A stretch of 64,000 nucleotides of DNA from Alloprevotella sp. GTDB taxonomy: Bacteria; Bacteroidota; Bacteroidia; Bacteroidales; Bacteroidaceae. This document shows, in pieces, positions 3,101-64,000 of the stretch. How positions within the stretch are numbered: the first letter of the stretch is position 1; every line of letters begins with the position of its first letter. Position numbers and translations under genes: made by a program. A model generated the notes under the pieces. The model made no database searches, had not been told where the DNA came from, and saw only the letters and a program-made list of their open reading frames with translations. The stretch spans positions 4,365-68,364 of the forward strand of contig JAZRYH010000081.1 in the NCBI GenBank assembly GCA_045600685.1, read 5' to 3'.

Positions 3101-3862
3101 TTCAACCCCGAAGCCACCGCCACCCTCCAGAAAGCCATCGCCGCTGCCGAGCAGACGGCCGCCACCGATCCCGTAGCCACGGCTGCCAAGCAGGCCTACA
3201 ACACGCTGAGCGCTGCTCTCGTCACTTACTTCCGCGCCTCCACCGGCACCATACACGGCCCGAAGAGCAGCACGGCCGACGTGAAGTACGGATACCGTTT
3301 CTACACACCCAACCGCGAGACCCGCTACGCCTATTCCCAAGGCAAGGCCAAAGGCATCATCGGCGTGCAGAACCCCAAGGACGACAAGAGCATCTGGTAC
3401 TTCTTCCAGCGCACTGACGGCTCCTACGACATCCAGAACAAGGCCGACGGCTCCTACATCGCTCCCACCGCCAGCAACGATACGCAGCTCAAGACCGTAG
3501 CCACCAAGCCCTCCGCCGGATGGAAACTCAAGGGCAGCGACGCCGAAGGTTGCTTCCGCATCTACAGCGGCAGCAACCAGATGATAAACCAGACGGGCTT
3601 CGACGACGGTATCGGTAAGAAACTCTATAACTGGGGCGCCGCCGTCAGCGACGCCACCAGCAGTGCCGACGCCGGTTGCCAGTACACCTTTGAGTTCGTG
3701 GGTGCCGAAGGCCTTCCCGACGCCATCACCACCGCAACGGTAGGCAAGGGCTCAACAGGAAAGGAGACCCAAGCCATCCCTTTCGCCATCAGCGGACGTC
3801 GCGCCGCTGACAACATGAAGCACGACATCATCATAGAGAGAAGAAGGAAGGTGATGAAGTAA
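122..3862 (+). CDS. GH89 alpha-N-acetylglucosaminidase with long C-terminal accessory region
   Basis: Signal peptide; GH89 motifs YFNVVTYGYT, ELDWMALHG, YLSDSFNE, GMTPEG; about 500-aa C-terminal extension. Confidence 0.9.
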   Translation: MNKLLTILLGLLLSLPMMAQLTAEQRVAGEKAATDIINRFTGGKVDVVVELSLTPTTKGCDKYEYSASGNTVTVKASSAVAACRGFYDWTKSKNAGMMTWSGKRFEKPADLTTATKSLTSQYRDHQYFNVVTYGYTMPYWDEDRWDKELDWMALHGVDMPLFLIAQEAIYRRVFLSMGLTAKDIDAWEVGPAHLPWFRMGNLSCNTFDGPLGDEWNTRQLEIAHHVLNRMDSLGMKPICPAFGGFVPGNFATRVKGTATEKVGWGWCIDGTHQNYRLNPTSEAFAEVGSKFIQEWEKEFGVRKYYLSDSFNEMKIPSASELPAYGQNIWKSIKEGSANPDVVWVTQGWTFNYQQGDWGLNKFQALTSSVPDNQFMVLYMSPEYSYGNKSWENYNSFDGKDWVYTLLPNMGGKNALCGKISDYAQGFLNTLNNSTKRSSLTGYGMTPEGVENNELVYELITDGGWVASKKTINLDTWMKQYANSRYGGYTAEQQAFHTALRNSVYNYFTDHPRFGWQYDGGLGTGSASQNDNFYKGVETLLSNIEDIRALNSPLAQNDMVEAVAMYCGGKVEKLNSRISNYVATGNTVMADSLIGVLDHLMLSMDRVLTCHPIYNLKRWEDFAQKGYTGSAQRNARNARRIVTVWFGKDHSKAEPVQDYAARVWAGLVRDYYRPRILHKWNAALGRKAWDGKANQYKWEEAWVETAPYLSDYEPVPADTLAFLAEVMAEAKAACEINFETLDSYKVSTDRDNHWYAFRCAYDDNIGRVLTAAGDNARLDAQIDTKTEAQIWRILQNADGTLVLESRNGDYVAVDGSTPYSFRAPVNADINIEWAHNDGNWLALLPTAAPSGSPALHFNKPADLVKLYGYKSATEYYAGSHWTIENVSPAMVLEARNTDYARYIKRLSGYTQEKLFGQPGYPVSKQALNEAIAQLEQEAQNIDHKSFDTFLAQWADLWDALIVKGSNADANRLIDLVAYAHGALNGDADDTQVGYFNPEATATLQKAIAAAEQTAATDPVATAAKQAYNTLSAALVTYFRASTGTIHGPKSSTADVKYGYRFYTPNRETRYAYSQGKAKGIIGVQNPKDDKSIWYFFQRTDGSYDIQNKADGSYIAPTASNDTQLKTVATKPSAGWKLKGSDAEGCFRIYSGSNQMINQTGFDDGIGKKLYNWGAAVSDATSSADAGCQYTFEFVGAEGLPDAITTATVGKGSTGKETQAIPFAISGRRAADNMKHDIIIERRRKVMK

Positions 3863-52001: not shown

Positions 52002-52313
52002 TCACTTCAGACGGCTCTGAAAGAATCCCACGATGTCGCCGGCTTCTTCCTCGGCACTCCGATTGTCCTTTTTCGCTTTCTTCTCGTCCACATAGCGAGG
52101 CGCGTCGGAAATCATCATGATTAGCGTCTGGTAGTTCACATCGTGAAGGATATATTCCACGCTCCAGCCAGTCGCACTCGCTATCTGCCATATAAAACCG
52201 AAAGGGCTATGGGAGCCTTCCCAACGGCTCTTTAACTCCCTTTCTTCATTCGGCTCAGTCTCAGCTTCATCGGATTCGCTATCTCGGCTGATCTGATAAT
52301 AGGTATAAAAGGG
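52002..52313 (-). CDS. Putative frameshifted tail-chaperone extension (T-like frame)
   Basis: Open -1 frame overlapping the chaperone end and stopping at 52002. Confidence 0.6.
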   Translation of the reverse strand, partial: PFYTYYQISRDSESDEAETEPNEERELKSRWEGSHSPFGFIWQIASATGWSVEYILHDVNYQTLIMMISDAPRYVDEKKAKKDNRSAEEEAGDIVGFFQSRLK

Positions 52314-52723
52314 TCTGTTCCCATCAGTGTAACGAATTTCTTCATCACTTCCATCTGGTACTCATACGTCATCATGTTGCGTATAAACCATGCCATGAGC
52401 CACACACAAAACTTACGGGCAAGATAACCGCGGCAAATCATATAAGCTATCATTCGGCTCACCTTCTTCCCATGGTTGACAAGGAACTGCATCTCCTCTT
52501 CTTTAGTGAAGTTCCACATTTGTTCACTTGTCACGCCCATAGAAAGATATGTCCGGGCAATTCGTAACTGCCCGGACATACTCGGTCGCTTCATGGTCAC
52601 ACGCAGCACTAAGGGAGTCTTCTTGAATGGTATGCGTATTGCCTTCAAGGGCACACTCACACCAATGTCAAGCAACGCATCTGCACCCTCCCTTTGTATC
52701 TGTCTGATCACATTTTCTTCCAT
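52232..52723 (-). CDS. Tail assembly chaperone (G-like)
   Basis: Lies between major tail and tape measure genes. Confidence 0.65.
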   Translation of the reverse strand: MEENVIRQIQREGADALLDIGVSVPLKAIRIPFKKTPLVLRVTMKRPSMSGQLRIARTYLSMGVTSEQMWNFTKEEEMQFLVNHGKKVSRMIAYMICRGYLARKFCVWLMAWFIRNMMTYEYQMEVMKKFVTLMGTDPFIPIIRSAEIANPMKLRLSRMKKGS

Positions 52724-56162: not shown

Positions 56163-57110
56163 TCAGATTGCGCACTCAATGCCGTACTCGGCCTTGTACA
56201 GTTTCTTGTACTGGGCAGGGTTCTGTTCGCGGAGCTTTTCAAGTTCCTCGCACGGGACGTCGCTCAGTTTTTTGTACTCAGCATTTCCACCGATCGGGGC
56301 ATTTCCACCTCCCACGATGTGGCTCAGCTTTACCTGGGGTGACATCGCATCGAATGTCTGCTTCAACTCTTCGGCGCCAATCTTGCCACCGAGGTTCATG
56401 AAATGCTGCTTCTTGTCCTCGCCAATCTTCTTCTCGGAAATCGCGGCGTTCACAAGGGTTTCGATACGTGCGGCACGCAGAGTGTCGCGTTCCTGGCGCA
56501 AGGTCTCGGCCTCTGCACCGTCAGCCTGCAACTTGGCCAACTTGGCGGTGATGGTCGCTTCATCGGCATCTTTCGGCAAGCCCAATTGAAGAGCTAACTT
56601 CTCTTGATCCATTTGGTTTGTTTTTTTATTAGGGTTGGTAATATGCAGCTGCGGCAACACCTCTGCCGCATTCTTGCCTAATGTCAGGAGCACACCGTCT
56701 TTCTGCAGGACGATGGCATCGTCATTCGCGCCTATGTCAACAAGCGACACCTCAAACAGTTTGCTCTTGGTGATGGTCGGGGTCGTCTGTCCCTGCATCA
56801 GGAACTCTGGCGCATCGCTGGTTTCAAGTATATCAATCCCCGCGCTCACCATCTTCAGGCTCCCGAACTCCCACTGCTTCTTGCAACGCAGGCTCAACTC
56901 ACTGGCCTCGTCAAACACCAGTTCGCCGGTAACCTCGGTTCCCTCCACCTTCAGGTCTTTTACATACCCTATTACTTGACCGCGCTCGTGCATATACAGA
57001 AGCACAGGATTCCTGTTGTATTGCTCTACGTTCATGCCGGAGGTCAGCACGCGCGTTCCGTAGCTGTTCAGGCTCTCGTTGCTGATTCTTACTCGTTTTG
57101 CTTTTCCCAT
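56163..57110 (-). CDS. Prohead protease/scaffold
   Basis: NPVLLYMH, SAG, LFEVSLVDIGAN; helical C-terminal half. Confidence 0.85.
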   Translation of the reverse strand: MGKAKRVRISNESLNSYGTRVLTSGMNVEQYNRNPVLLYMHERGQVIGYVKDLKVEGTEVTGELVFDEASELSLRCKKQWEFGSLKMVSAGIDILETSDAPEFLMQGQTTPTITKSKLFEVSLVDIGANDDAIVLQKDGVLLTLGKNAAEVLPQLHITNPNKKTNQMDQEKLALQLGLPKDADEATITAKLAKLQADGAEAETLRQERDTLRAARIETLVNAAISEKKIGEDKKQHFMNLGGKIGAEELKQTFDAMSPQVKLSHIVGGGNAPIGGNAEYKKLSDVPCEELEKLREQNPAQYKKLYKAEYGIECAI

Positions 57111-59346: not shown

Positions 59347-59585
59347 TGAAACATATTAAAGCACTCATCAAAAGGCTTGTCTTTGCCTGCCGTTTCAAGC
59401 GGGCCGTCAAGAAAGCAGACCACTTTCACCATATCACCCACCGCAAATATATGGTGCTCGTCATTAACAAACGCCTCGAAGTACTCTCCAAGCAGGAACT
59501 CAAAAAGTTCATCGCCAGCGGGGTATTTCGCAAAGGTACCACCATCTCTGACATTGAAGCAAAGGCGCTTTACATAACACTCTAA
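59346..59585 (+). CDS. Small basic phage protein
   Basis: Start overlaps the terminase stop (TAATG). Confidence 0.7.
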   Translation: MKHIKALIKRLVFACRFKRAVKKADHFHHITHRKYMVLVINKRLEVLSKQELKKFIASGVFRKGTTISDIEAKALYITL

Positions 59586-59595
59586 ACTTCTGGCT

Positions 59596-60015
59596 ATGTT
59601 TATCACGGATGAAGACTACAAAGTGGTCATCGGCGACCAGGCACTCAAAGTCGTCTCACAGGTCAGTCAGGACAACCGCGCCAATGCCGAGACAGAAGCC
59701 ATTGAAGAAATCAGCGGATACCTCCGGCCTAAATATGACACCGAGGCCGTTTTCTCGGCATCGGGTACCGAACGCAACCGACTTGTCGTCATGTACACTT
59801 GCGACATTGCTCTCTATCACATGGCAGCCAGTGCACCCCAGAAGATGGGCATGGAGATTCGCAAGGAACGATATGAACGTGCCGTCAAGTGGCTTGAAGG
59901 CGTGCAATCCGGGAAAATCGTTCCAGACCTTCCCATCACCACCGACGACGAAGGCAACCCACTCGGATTCCCTATGGTATATGGAGCACAAAAAAAACTC
60001 AGACACAACTGGTAG
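59596..60015 (+). CDS. Mu gp36-like (DUF1320) head-tail adaptor
   Basis: EISGYL..KYD, DIALYH, RYERAVKWL. Confidence 0.82.
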   Translation: MFITDEDYKVVIGDQALKVVSQVSQDNRANAETEAIEEISGYLRPKYDTEAVFSASGTERNRLVVMYTCDIALYHMAASAPQKMGMEIRKERYERAVKWLEGVQSGKIVPDLPITTDDEGNPLGFPMVYGAQKKLRHNW

Positions 60016-60018
60016 AAT

Positions 60019-61350
60019 ATGGCAAAAAATAAAAAAAATACCAATCAAATGCTGGTGCGTACGCCCTTCGGAACGCTGCGACTGGCTAAGAAGGAGGCAC
60101 AGCGCTTCAAGAAAACGGTCATGGAACTGCAGCGCACCACAGACTCCCTCACACGAAAGGACATGGGCGACTGGCGCCAGGCATGGCAACGCGCCATCAA
60201 TATCGACAGTCCTAACCGACAGCCACTCTACGACATCTACCGAGATGTCGATGTGGACCTCCATCTTTCCGGATGCATACAGCAGCGCGAAGGATTTGTA
60301 CTCTCACGCTCTTTCAAACTCGTAAACGAAAAAGGAGACGAGGACGAGGAGGCTGCCAATTATTTCAACACCTCATGGTTCAAACTACTCATGAAGCTCG
60401 CCCTCGATGCCAATTATTGGGGGCACTCCCTCATAGAACTGGGAGGTGTTACCACAGACATCAACGGACGGCTCACCTACGATGGCGTAAACCTCATTCC
60501 GCGCAAGCATGTCATTCCTGAATACCACCGCGTCATCACCGACCTAGGGCAGGACTGGAAATCCGGTATCGACTATCATGAGCCACCTTTCGCCGACTGG
60601 CTCATCGAGGTCGGACAGCCCGACAGTCTCGGACTCTACCTCAAGGCAGCCACCCAGACAATACCCAAGAAGAACGCACTCGCCTTCTGGGATACCTTCG
60701 CTGAAATCTTTGGGATGCCTATGCGCATAGCACGCACCACGTCCCGAGATGACAAGGAACTCGCACGCATGGAAAAGATGATGGCCGACATGGGGACCGA
60801 GGGATGGGGTATCTTCCAGCAGGGCACCGAAATTGAGGTCGTCGAGTCATCCAAGGGCGACGCCTTCAATGTCTATGACAAGCGTATCGACCGCGCCAAC
60901 TCCGAACTCTCAAAGCTCATCATCGGGCAGACCATGACCATAGAGGACGGAAGCAGCTTATCACAGTCGGAAACGCATCTTGAGGTCTTCCAAAACCTTG
61001 TCGAGGCTGACTGCGACACACTGCGCGACATGGTCAACAACCAGCTCATACCTCACATGATTCGCCACGGGTTCCCGCTCGCAGGCATTCACTTTGACTG
61101 GGACTACTCCGTGGACTACACACCTGAACAGCAGGTGGCCTATGAGTCCATGGTGCTTGGCGAATATGAGGTTGACCCTGCCTATTTCGAGGAGAAATAC
61201 AATATGCCGGTAGGTGAGCGCAGGCAGCAGCTTCCGCCTGTCGCCCCGACAGAGCCCACACAGGACGGCGAAGACACCGAAGACGGTGAAACACCCAAGC
61301 CAGGCAAAAAGACGCGACAGGAAAGAAATGTGCACCTTTTTTTCGACTGA
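60019..61350 (+). CDS. Portal protein (Mu gp29/DUF935-like)
   Basis: FAEIFGMP, ELSKLIIGQTMT, SQSETH. Confidence 0.88.
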   Translation: MAKNKKNTNQMLVRTPFGTLRLAKKEAQRFKKTVMELQRTTDSLTRKDMGDWRQAWQRAINIDSPNRQPLYDIYRDVDVDLHLSGCIQQREGFVLSRSFKLVNEKGDEDEEAANYFNTSWFKLLMKLALDANYWGHSLIELGGVTTDINGRLTYDGVNLIPRKHVIPEYHRVITDLGQDWKSGIDYHEPPFADWLIEVGQPDSLGLYLKAATQTIPKKNALAFWDTFAEIFGMPMRIARTTSRDDKELARMEKMMADMGTEGWGIFQQGTEIEVVESSKGDAFNVYDKRIDRANSELSKLIIGQTMTIEDGSSLSQSETHLEVFQNLVEADCDTLRDMVNNQLIPHMIRHGFPLAGIHFDWDYSVDYTPEQQVAYESMVLGEYEVDPAYFEEKYNMPVGERRQQLPPVAPTEPTQDGEDTEDGETPKPGKKTRQERNVHLFFD

Positions 61351-61472
61351 GCCCCAGTGACTACCTGGGGCTGCATGAACGATATGCGAGCCTTCTGGGC
61401 GACAAGACGCTGCAGGCTGCCTTCAGCCGCGAAGATGAAATACGGGGCGAACTCTCACGTCTCTTCGAGGGA

Positions 61473-62666
61473 ATGATGCAGACGCTCTACAAAGTGGAGG
61501 GGGCACAGTTCCGCATAGAACTCCTCGAGACACCGAAGATGCAGGAGTTCATCAACACACATGCAGAGGCTCTCGATTCTTCGTTCACGCAGGTTCCCAT
61601 GTCCGAGACCATGCGCCAGAGGCTCCAACGATCCAACTATATCTTCTCCGGGCTCAAAACGTTCCACGAACTCGGCGAAGCATTCCCCTCTCTCATCGAT
61701 GAGAACGGCAACAGAAAGCCATTCGAACAGTTCTTGAATGACGTTCAAAAGATTGACCGCACCTACAACCAGAACTACCTTCGCGCCGAATACAACTTCT
61801 GCCAGGCTTCTGCCGACATGGCTGCCAAGTGGGAAGGTTTCATGCAGGACGGCGACCGTTACAACCTCCAGTACCGCACACAGCGCGACAAGAAGGTCAG
61901 ACCGGCACATGCCGCCCTCGACCGTGTCACACTGCCCATCACTGACCCCTTCTGGCAGGAGTATTATCCGCCCAATGGATGGAACTGCCGATGCACGGTC
62001 GTACAGGTACGCAAATCAAAATACCCCGTAACGCCGCACGATGAGGCAATGGCACTCGGCGAGGAAGCCACAGCGGGCGACACGCGGGGCATCTTCCACT
62101 TCAATCCTGGAATTGAGCAGAAGACATTCCCAGACTACAACCCCTACACCATACGCCAGTGCAGGGACTGTGATATCGCCCAAGGGAAAATAAAACTGGA
62201 TTTTGTGCCAAGCAACTTATTGTGCGATGGTTGCCGGTTCATCCATGAGTGTTATGAGAACAGGGCCAAGTCAGAGAATAGGGTGCTTAAAGATCATTAT
62301 ATGCACGAAATGGAACCGCTGCTCAGTGTTAAGCACATGATGTCAACAGGGTCCTCTAATCCTGACATCAGAGTCGGTTTCACGAAAATAGGCAACGAGC
62401 ATCTTTACTCTGATACTTTCGGACGGTCAAAGGTTCTCAGAAAGGAAGACCTAAAATCACTTGACCAACTGCTCACACAAGCCACCTATATTGACGACAA
62501 CGATGCCTATGGCCACAAATACAACATTGAGCACTTCTACTATTATGAAGCAGAATTGCACGGTCATAAAATAAGGTTGAATGTTGCTAAAGAGGTTAGA
62601 ACATACACAAATGGAAAGACCCGAATAAAGTTCTATCTCTACTCCATCAATGACATAAAAGAATAA
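61473..62666 (+). CDS. MuF (Mu gp30-like) minor head protein with C-terminal extension
   Basis: YLRAEY, DKKVRPAH, YPPNGWNCRC; frame is open upstream to the portal end. Confidence 0.9.
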   Translation: MMQTLYKVEGAQFRIELLETPKMQEFINTHAEALDSSFTQVPMSETMRQRLQRSNYIFSGLKTFHELGEAFPSLIDENGNRKPFEQFLNDVQKIDRTYNQNYLRAEYNFCQASADMAAKWEGFMQDGDRYNLQYRTQRDKKVRPAHAALDRVTLPITDPFWQEYYPPNGWNCRCTVVQVRKSKYPVTPHDEAMALGEEATAGDTRGIFHFNPGIEQKTFPDYNPYTIRQCRDCDIAQGKIKLDFVPSNLLCDGCRFIHECYENRAKSENRVLKDHYMHEMEPLLSVKHMMSTGSSNPDIRVGFTKIGNEHLYSDTFGRSKVLRKEDLKSLDQLLTQATYIDDNDAYGHKYNIEHFYYYEAELHGHKIRLNVAKEVRTYTNGKTRIKFYLYSINDIKE

Positions 62667-62743
62667 GCACCGAAGGCGGCAGTTAGGATTACTATGTCCA
62701 GGTAACCATTCCTTCGATGCTTTTTCTGCCTGCAAAATTACAA

Positions 62744-62782
62744 AAAAATCCGCTACTTCCAACAAAAGTAGCGGACTTTTTT
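62744..62782. terminator. Bidirectional terminator between convergent phage operons
   Basis: TCCGCTACTT/AAGTAGCGGA stem flanked by A and T runs. Confidence 0.8.
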
Positions 62783-62806
62783 CATTTTTAGGCTGTTTTT
62801 CTGGCT

Positions 62807-63301
62807 TTATAGGCTTTTTATGGCCACGCATTGGTAAGTTTCGATGTTTTCTATCACATCTTCATGGTTGTGGTTCGTGCTGCTCCCTACAAGGTCAAAC
62901 TCCATAAACGTCTCGCCATTCATGCAGATCAGGGCCGCGTGCATCTCCTCCATCAGGTCGAACACCTCAAGGCTCTTCCCGAGGAAAGCACTCTCGGAAC
63001 TGCTGCTTCCCTGCCAGTCTGTCACCACATGAAGGTTCACAGTCGGCTCCGCACGATATTCCACGCCGTTCCGAATGGCGTTCCACTGGATAGGCTGAAA
63101 CTCCACAAACACTGCGGGGCGTTCCCAGTTCTCTTCCTGCTCGATGAACTCCACATTGTGATTCCACAGGTCGATGTACTTTATCGCACGCTCCCAACCT
63201 TCAGGAACTTCTTCCCCTGGTTCGACTACGACAAAACCATTTGGTGTGCTGTAAATGCTTGACAAACGCTCAATGAGCATGTTGTATAGTTCTTTTCTCA
63301 T
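62807..63301 (-). CDS. Phage protein, possibly tail terminator
   Basis: 164-aa ORF after the gpG-like gene; PAVFVEF motif. Confidence 0.6.
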   Translation of the reverse strand: MRKELYNMLIERLSSIYSTPNGFVVVEPGEEVPEGWERAIKYIDLWNHNVEFIEQEENWERPAVFVEFQPIQWNAIRNGVEYRAEPTVNLHVVTDWQGSSSSESAFLGKSLEVFDLMEEMHAALICMNGETFMEFDLVGSSTNHNHEDVIENIETYQCVAIKSL

Positions 63302-63389
63302 TGTCTTTTTTGTTTTTTTGTTCAGTGCGGCGAGGCATTGCCTTGCCGTTTCCGTCTTCAGTCAGGGCAGCCGTGAATGGCTGCCTTCA

Positions 63390-63953
63390 TCACGATTCAC
63401 GAATTTCAAAATTGATTGCTTCCTCAATGTAACCGTTCAGGTTCTCCTCGATGATGCTGCGCACGGCTTCCTCCACTTCGGGACTGGTACCCAAGAACCT
63501 TCGTCTCGGTATCTTGATAGTCGTGCCGGCTTTCTTCAGGGCCATAAACTTCCAGAAAGCGGCTTCATCGCTCAACTGTACTGTGCGCTTGTCGTTGCGC
63601 TTGCTGCCGTCTTTCTTCCTGCCAAACGAACCGGTCGCCTCGTAGTATTTGTGCCAGAAGTATTTCTTCATACGCGTTGTCACCACGATTTCTCCGCCTT
63701 CATTGTGGATGGCCGCATAGGGCTCGGTCGTGAAGAACGTGATGCTGTTCTCCGTCATCCGGCTCTGGATGCTGCGGCGCAACTGGCCTGTGGCCACCAG
63801 TATGTGGCCGTCACGCCGCACAGGGCTGCGCCGACGCTGCCACGCTTCGGAGAAAAAGGCCTCGCGCTCAAAGTTCTGGTCGAACTCGTCGGCCATTTCC
63901 ACCTGGATGTCCTTAAGGATCCTTCCTAAAATAGCTCGGGTCTCTGACTTCAT
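63390..63953 (-). CDS. Phage virion morphogenesis protein (Mu gpG-like)
   Basis: NFEREAF, TGQLRRSI, YAAIHNEG, IPRRRFLG. Confidence 0.85.
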   Translation of the reverse strand: MKSETRAILGRILKDIQVEMADEFDQNFEREAFFSEAWQRRRSPVRRDGHILVATGQLRRSIQSRMTENSITFFTTEPYAAIHNEGGEIVVTTRMKKYFWHKYYEATGSFGRKKDGSKRNDKRTVQLSDEAAFWKFMALKKAGTTIKIPRRRFLGTSPEVEEAVRSIIEENLNGYIEEAINFEIRES

Positions 63954-64000
63954 CTTCGGGGTATAATAACTCTGGGAATAAAAAGCCCTCTGCTGAAAGC

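Follow-up and report, generated by a model that had tools for sequence, protein, structure and literature searches.

A probable programmed -1 frameshift signal between the portal and MuF genes of Mu-like Bacteroidota phages

Introduction

In the lambda-type G/GT genes, a -1 shift of the ribosome near the end of a phage morphogenesis gene yields both a short and an extended product (PMC5009743, PMC6316719). In Lactobacillus phage A2, in gene 10 of T3/T7 and in the Listeria phages A118, A500 and PSA, frameshifting equips some copies of a structural protein with an extra C-terminal domain, and these copies are incorporated into the virion (PMC5009743). Here we describe a locus that resembles both, in a 64,000-nucleotide stretch of DNA (hereafter the window) from Alloprevotella sp. 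(assembly GCA_045600685.1, contig JAZRYH010000081.1, positions 4,365 to 68,364). A Mu-type portal gene of a prophage ends in a slippery heptamer and a hairpin that, judging from sequence comparisons, very probably cause a programmed -1 ribosomal frameshift, by which MuF would become a C-terminal extension of some portal chains.

The same heptamer, UUUUUUC, has been predicted as the shift site of the 17.5/17.5* pair of phage SPP1 (PMC5009743, PMC6316719) and of Pseudomonas phage PaMx73 (PMC4378225). The locus is nevertheless not a member of the G/GT group. G and GT are tail chaperones that leave the particle (PMC5009743, PMC6316719), and their shift site lies in the gene pair just ahead of the tape measure gene. 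In the present case it is the portal that would be extended, by an entire MuF protein whose cargo varies, and there is a mirror layout in which the shift would yield the short product. The extensions of A2, T3/T7 and the Listeria phages are small, often immunoglobulin-like domains on major head or tail proteins (PMC5009743), whereas here the portal would gain some 440 amino acids that include a predicted enzyme and probably lie within the head. A third likeness is to dnaX, where one gene gives the long tau and the short gamma product by a -1 shift, with an efficiency near 50%, and altering one nucleotide can swap which product needs the shift (PMC5009743). Such reversible roles, by which the long product can become the shifted one, are the same two-layout pattern that we find, although the proteins are unrelated and dnaX uses A_AAA_AAG.

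MuF itself is known from a polymorphic toxin family and from gp7 of SPP1: the muf gene stands right after the portal gene, as it does in the window, and the protein carries a variable, toxin-like C-terminal domain (PMC5576092, PMC6316719, PMC11699363, PMC5512222). SPP1 gp7 binds the portal, gp6, and enters the head in one or two copies (PMC6316719, PMC5576092), and PBECR domains fused to MuF and portal domains are mentioned in PMC5512222. These papers treat MuF as a protein made on its own; in the present locus it would be tied to the portal covalently, through recoding. The word 'frameshift' is absent from the main text of PMC5576092, PMC5512222 and PMC11699363, and 'portal' from the first 300,000 of the 449,034 characters of the frameshift review PMC5009743. 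A literature search covering largely the main texts of openly accessible papers found no portal frameshift, and the author of a preliminary description of this DNA was not aware of any account of such recoding.

If the frameshift is real, the list of recoded phage genes would gain the portal, and this in a widespread group to which both the gut hankyphage and Porphyromonas phages of the mouth belong. The loading of MuF effectors into heads and the limit on their dose would also receive a concrete explanation that is open to test. Such a test is within reach because hankyphage strains with genetic tools exist (PMC12135933).

Results and discussion

A slippery heptamer and a hairpin at the end of the portal gene

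The C-terminus of the portal is a low-complexity linker rich in proline, glutamate and aspartate, followed by the residues HLFFD. The 3' end of the gene reads CAC CTT TTT TTC GAC TGA, with the stop codon at 61348-61350. The heptamer is followed after five nucleotides (six to the first G) by the hairpin (Table 1). Folding of 61345-61385 gives z = -4.13, and none of 200 shuffled sequences folded equally well. The -1 frame is open from about 61290, passes through 45 codons between the heptamer and the ATG at 61473, and continues to 62666. The predicted portal-MuF fusion has 882 amino acids and 102 kDa, against 443 amino acids and 51 kDa for the portal. All these elements, the heptamer, the portal stop, the hairpin and the 45 open codons, had been pointed out in the preliminary description and are present in the sequence.

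How often would such a constellation arise by chance? The genome holds 1462 open reading frames (ORFs) of at least 250 amino acids, and in 50 of them the final 55 nucleotides contain an in-register heptamer. A hairpin of -12 kcal/mol or better is also present in three of these 50, and just one of the three, the portal gene, has a -1 ORF of at least 200 codons as well. A scan of 59500-64000 against Rfam gave just a chance-level match to Thr_leader (E 0.88), over the terminator downstream of MuF. Inspection by eye, with no program run, showed no conserved partner for the loop that would make a pseudoknot; the loop varies in sequence and in length, from 3 to 16 nucleotides, across unique junctions.

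The junction peptide first proposed for detecting the fusion in virions is unsuitable as it stands, since trypsin would cut within it. The predicted diagnostic tryptic peptides are instead NVHLFFR and LSPSDYLGLHER for the shifted product, against NVHLFFD for the unshifted portal.

Table 1. Features of the portal-MuF junction and its surroundings, in window coordinates
Feature	Position	Strand	Remarks
Mu-type portal gene	60019-61350	+	443 amino acids, 51 kDa; Pfam PF06074 (Portal_Mu), E 3.6e-75
Slippery heptamer U_UUU_UUC (T TTT TTC)	61338-61344	+	X XXY YYZ register with the portal frame; two Phe codons that can re-pair one base back
Spacer GAC and portal stop TGA	61345-61350	+	-1 frame reads CGA CTG (Arg-Leu)
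3' stimulatory hairpin (putative), AGCCCCAG-TGACTAC-CTGGGGCT	61350-61372	+	8-bp stem with GCCCC/GGGGC core, 7-nucleotide loop, -14.1 kcal/mol
-1-frame segment without annotation	61345-61472	+	Predicted true N-terminal MuF helices; synonymous bias, no stops
First in-frame ATG	61473-61475	+	Falls within modelled helix 24-51, as residue 46 of the -1 ORF; probably an internal Met
Phage_Mu_F domain (PF04233)	61725-62000	+	Residues 130-221 of the -1 ORF; E 6.7e-14
C-terminal cargo domain, LPD3-like	62364-62618	+	Pfam PF18798, E 3.1e-4, below cut-off
Terminator-like hairpin	62742-62782	both	Past the MuF stop (62666); consensus scan only
Prohead protease gene	56163-57110

The signal is kept and its stem covaries in close relatives

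Close relatives were chosen by protein similarity: 86 loci were fetched, 10 without a portal end or a MuF match were dropped, and 76 could be evaluated. In all 76 the motif TTTTTTCGAYTRA is kept and MuF lies in an open -1 frame (41 unique 72-nucleotide junctions), so that the conservation expected in related phages if the signal is functional was found. A local hairpin of -12 kcal/mol or better is present in 72. The other four (L043:4275-4400, L044, L045:4242-4367 and L086) carry a 78-nucleotide in-frame insertion inside the hairpin loop; in the two that were folded the basal stem is intact under a branched structure (z about -5), and the frame is also kept. The distance from heptamer to GCCC is six nucleotides in all 168 stem-scored junctions out of 171 unique ones, many of which were selected by pattern.

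Covariation was examined in 76 distinct junctions, 28 selected by protein and 48 by pattern. In the pattern-selected rows the outer stem pairs were fixed by the query and the two innermost pairs were free. Of all stem cells, 96.9% are paired, compared with 29-57% in slid controls. Two-sided changes at three stem pairs account for 66 cells, against 21 in shuffles, and none of 500 shuffles reached as many.

The heptamer is constrained at the level of codons. The two Phe codons and the wobble T ahead of them are invariant, giving a fixed pattern xxT TTT TTC, while the residue before the two phenylalanines is encoded by 11 different codons among the unique junctions.

The arrangement recurs in distant Bacteroidota phages

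Outside the close group, the slippery run and hairpin are conserved in many Bacteroidota phages of distant kinship, hankyphage among them. Viral contigs were scanned twice by pattern, each scan taking 120 loci from an estimated 650 and 1300 matching stretches. Of the loci evaluable with both profiles, 99 of 99 and 76 of 77 lie in register at a portal/MuF junction; these counts show the specificity of the pattern, not its conservation. The sole exception, L253, has a further frame break upstream. An unbiased set came from three genome searches with Pfam-selected loci: 77 loci, of which 47 passed a clade filter (portal profile of at least 250 bits plus a MuF match), the 30 left out being mostly distant or without a MuF match. 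In 29 of the 47, MuF can be reached only by a -1 shift; these loci have an in-register heptamer and a -1 frame that overlaps openly. Nine are mirror loci, in which portal and MuF are fused in frame and a slippery site is followed soon by a -1 stop. An in-register heptamer occurs in 29 of the 30 clade loci with an open -1 overlap and in 9 of the 12 fused ORFs; chance would give about 7% and 14% for the windows used, given a background of 71 heptamers in 16,691 codons. Hankyphage p00, with a portal identity of 29%, carries U_UUU_UUC too and encodes MuF in the -1 frame, the form that must shift to fuse; a relative lacks the ATG that hankyphage has at this junction.

The heptamers of the 29 loci vary in sequence (13 UUUUUUC, 3 UUUUUUU, 4 AAAUUUU, 4 AAAAAAG, 3 GGGAAAG and 2 others), yet their position and frame are constant; several of the A-type sites have little hairpin. 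This variety bears on transcriptional slippage, in which RNA polymerase would add one U on the T run and ordinary translation would then give the same fusion product. Slippage is plausible in distant relatives with runs of 9-11 A and little or no junction hairpin (L393, L394, L398, L381 and Peternella_1). At the site in the window it is very improbable. Slippage usually needs a homopolymer of about 8-9 nucleotides or more, but the T run is six long in 165 and seven in 6 of the 171 unique junctions, and never longer. The structure, which is 3' of the site and spaced as for a ribosome, would still be untranscribed at the moment of the slip. The heptamer is always in codon register, and mixed heptamers such as A_AAU_UUU and G_GGA_AAG substitute for it in relatives.

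Two further loci deserve mention. In Winogradskyella phage Peternella_1 (L212), near 3685-3715, A-run slippery sites mark the end of the portal gene, where the -1 frame is open and leads into MuF, and the annotated MuF start lies about 100 nucleotides past them. In L346 (G293), whose distant portal is outside the clade filter, C_CCU_UUC is followed by a hairpin of -14 kcal/mol and a 481-codon -1 ORF into MuF; because it has heptamer, hairpin and -1 ORF together, the device may extend beyond the clade.

The segment ahead of the first ATG is coding

Does MuF simply start by itself? It might initiate at the ATG of 61473, or at a non-AUG codon coupled to portal termination, with the hairpin regulating coupling or RNA stability and no recoding taking place. 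In favour of this, most of the close group shares the in-frame ATG ATG found at 61473, an ATG is also seen at the portal stop of hankyphage, and in JBD30 and PhiR68_1, Mu-like phages of Proteobacteria, portal and MuF are separate, coupled genes without the signal.

The stretch ahead of the ATG speaks otherwise, for the 43 codons upstream evolve as protein in the MuF frame. Among 24 unique sequences of the segment between hairpin and ATG, differences fall on the three MuF-frame codon positions as 2444/1553/4811, and codons with a single change are synonymous rather than non-synonymous by 2486 to 736. The MuF frame contains a stop in none of the 24, the two other frames in 19 and 23. No upstream ATG, GTG or TTG occupies a position common to more than 4 of 45 sequences, and the candidate CTG starts vary (GAG, GCG, TTG; CTA, CTC, CTT). 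In 17 of the 29 shift-requiring clade loci there is no ATG up to 60 nucleotides into the MuF profile. Helices of the -1 ORF are modelled at residues 7-20 and 24-51 by an alignment-based AlphaFold prediction (68 rows; pLDDT, the predicted local distance difference test, 88; a single-sequence model with pLDDT 34 was discarded), and a start at 61473 would cut the second. By this model the segment encodes the true N-terminal helices of MuF. Some relatives have in-frame domain insertions of 190 amino acids ahead of the ATG region, and the Phe codons and the wobble T before them are invariant. That MuF is made only from its own start thus seems hardly likely. A methionine at the corresponding place also lies inside natural fusions such as P0002-P0004, and the one at 61473 is probably an internal residue rather than the true start. 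Many MuF genes of the group would then be annotated with truncated N-termini.

The insertions between shift site and MuF core, of about 190 amino acids (L018:4269-6362, L023:4317-6287, L099 and L162), carry a HELAH/HELGH motif like that of zinc peptidases, and could encode a processing protease for the fusion. A different, intein-like (Hint) insertion, with matches below cut-off, is seen within MuF of L021:3512-5998.

Weighing the frameshift reading

Conservation, covariation, the coding signature ahead of the ATG, the unconserved start codon and the natural in-frame fusions together give strong support to a programmed -1 frameshift, as proposed at the outset, that would yield a portal-MuF fusion. 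Other observations weigh against it. The sequences are related, so that locus counts overstate their independence, and on two of the five covariation measures, the number of pairs changed on both sides and that of further pair types, the stem did not exceed shuffles (175 and 435 of 500). An ATG lies within 30 nucleotides of the MuF profile start in 79 of 111 unique junctions in which the portal ends FFD-stop; since the in-frame ATG at 61473 is present and common in its subgroup, some separate synthesis of MuF is possible. The hankyphage ATG overlaps the portal stop. The 47 clade loci also include three in-frame fusions in which no heptamer was found and six with separate genes and no signal, and two Flavobacterium phages have separate portal and MuF genes without it. 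Because such loci exist, a mixture of short and long portal is not universally required.

The likeness to a frameshift site might also be incidental, the FF motif and the GCCCC/GGGGC stem reflecting a constraint on the protein, such as a cleavage site, or a terminator. FFxxAP does recur in the in-frame fusion proteins. A protein constraint, however, explains neither why the codons are fixed as xxT TTT TTC beside a residue so freely encoded nor why the stem is kept through compensatory pairs that change amino acids, and we consider this reading very improbable. An intrinsic terminator at 61350-61372 was rejected: the T run precedes the hairpin, the wrong order on either strand, and a terminator scan made no call.

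An assembly error or a broken fused gene, for which the in-frame fusions among close relatives (P0002) might speak, can be dismissed, as the same offset and stop recur in all 76 close loci and contigs from three runs of three independent studies (4 of 19 sequencing runs were examined) span the junction without a gap, differing at 61337 (T to C), a base outside the heptamer.

A mirror layout and the ratio of the two predicted products

A search for longer relatives found 32 natural proteins with both Portal_Mu and Phage_Mu_F domains, among them P0002, a close in-frame fusion with 73% portal identity. DNA sequences show that in many fusions the boundary between the domains retains both heptamer and hairpin, and that the -1 frame closes 2-32 codons further on. 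A near -1 stop proves little alone because it is often expected by chance. A stronger sign of a mirror frameshift is the motif WxxPH, kept in the -1 tail of 12 of 19 unique mirror junctions with codons that vary synonymously (Pro CCT/CCC/CCG, His CAC/CAT) while the 0-frame residues vary. These junction sequences are related, yet spread over at least two portal clades. One example is Porphyromonas phage012a (L419, BK068093), in which an annotated 853-amino-acid 'portal' is a mirror-type portal-MuF fusion with the junction at codon 423, its -1 frame closing 21 codons on.

On the portal tree the two layouts are intermingled. The mirror label changes 11 times, at least 8 of them forced by well-supported branches; this was a quick tree of 87 rows (47 unbiased and 40 hand-chosen), with support from the Shimodaira-Hasegawa-like approximate likelihood ratio test (SH-aLRT) only. 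Since the mirror layout would give relatives the same pair of products, what is selected appears to be a mixture of short and long portal.

The preliminary description spoke of a minority fusion. The comparative evidence strongly supports a fusion; that it is the minority product is not established, as mirror loci would make it without a shift and some relatives are fused with no visible site. The flipping of layouts recalls dnaX, with its efficiency near 50%, so the fusion need not be a small minority. Since mirror loci share the signal and some fused relatives have no visible slippery site, the ratio may be near 1:1 or only loosely constrained, and the existence of the latter suggests that a fully loaded ring, or later cleavage, is tolerated too. 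Many 'fused portal' genes would then hide a second, shorter product, and the repeated flips would amount to a natural experiment on frameshift efficiency and on the cargo load that a portal ring tolerates.

A model for the loading of MuF

How might the signal work? Ribosomes would pause against the hairpin, 5-6 nucleotides downstream, while UUU occupies the P site and UUC the A site. Both tRNA-Phe would slip in tandem and re-pair on UUU UUU. Shifted translation would read FFRLSP and continue to the 882-amino-acid product, and unshifted ribosomes would stop two codons later.

Portal C-termini face the head interior. If, as general portal structure and the SPP1 gp6/gp7 pair suggest, portal and portal-MuF co-assemble in the ring, MuF and its predicted RNase-like tip would be tethered inside the head on the low-complexity linker. 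MuF would in this way be loaded at the portal vertex, by analogy with SPP1, the covalent tether replacing the non-covalent targeting of gp7 by gp6. To be delivered, MuF would have to be cut free, perhaps by the prohead protease.

A fuller picture can be offered tentatively, as one possibility. The Bacteroidota Mu-like phages may build a mixed ring of plain and MuF-effector portals, its ratio set by a high-efficiency, dnaX-like shift whose polarity has flipped many times; the mirror shift would add a functional WxxPH tail to the short portal, and toxins would be covalently tethered at the DNA-packaging vertex, their dose set by recoding and their release proteolytic.

In published proteomics of hankyphage particles, the 250-85 kDa gel slice held 20 portal and 3 MuF peptides (PMC12135933, Table S6), a result that does not discriminate the fusion because small proteins (Gam and the adaptor) were in the same slice.

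The cargo domain and the surrounding genes

The C-terminal cargo domain has a weak likeness in fold to BECR-type RNase toxins: VIA-align gave Z 6.0 to 7m5f_C (root-mean-square deviation 3.5, 93 aligned) and Z 5.2 to 3u97, 9v8i and 6cp9, all middling values. Foldseek found no match in the PDB at E of 0.001 or below (the C-terminal domain was not folded alone). In relatives, MuF ORFs from 95 of 103 representatives were scanned for C-terminal tips. All 95 match PF04233, and the tips over cut-off are PBECR2, CdiA_C, Gln_amidase (a glutamine deamidase) or LPD3. Seven of the nine mirror ORFs scanned (L230, L235, L250, L260, L262, L271 and L291) end in PBECR2, which is rare in ORFs that must shift to fuse; this bias may only reflect kinship. 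Among plus-strand ORFs of at least 60 amino acids, the size range covered, none begins between the end of MuF and the gene that converges on it, where an adjacent immunity gene might be expected.

The window holds a Mu-type head module: terminase, gp36 adaptor, Portal_Mu, MuF and a Mu I-like protease. It shares this module with the Mu-like transposable phages of Bacteroidota (hankyphage, the proposed Alisviridae, Winoviridae). The terminase was assigned by gene position only and has no Pfam match. A neck-type gene and its neighbour (62807-63953) point toward MuF; in hankyphage the same genes follow MuF on its strand.

The portal/MuF junction also differs in place from a probable tail assembly chaperone pair, at 52002-52723 on the minus strand, which precedes the tape measure gene. 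There a 163-amino-acid ORF is overlapped by an open -1 frame that runs to GFFQSRLK and a stop. The end of the ORF (AAG AAA GGG AGT TAA) shows no canonical heptamer, and beyond the stop comes a short inverted repeat; this pair may hold a second recoding site, of a non-canonical kind.

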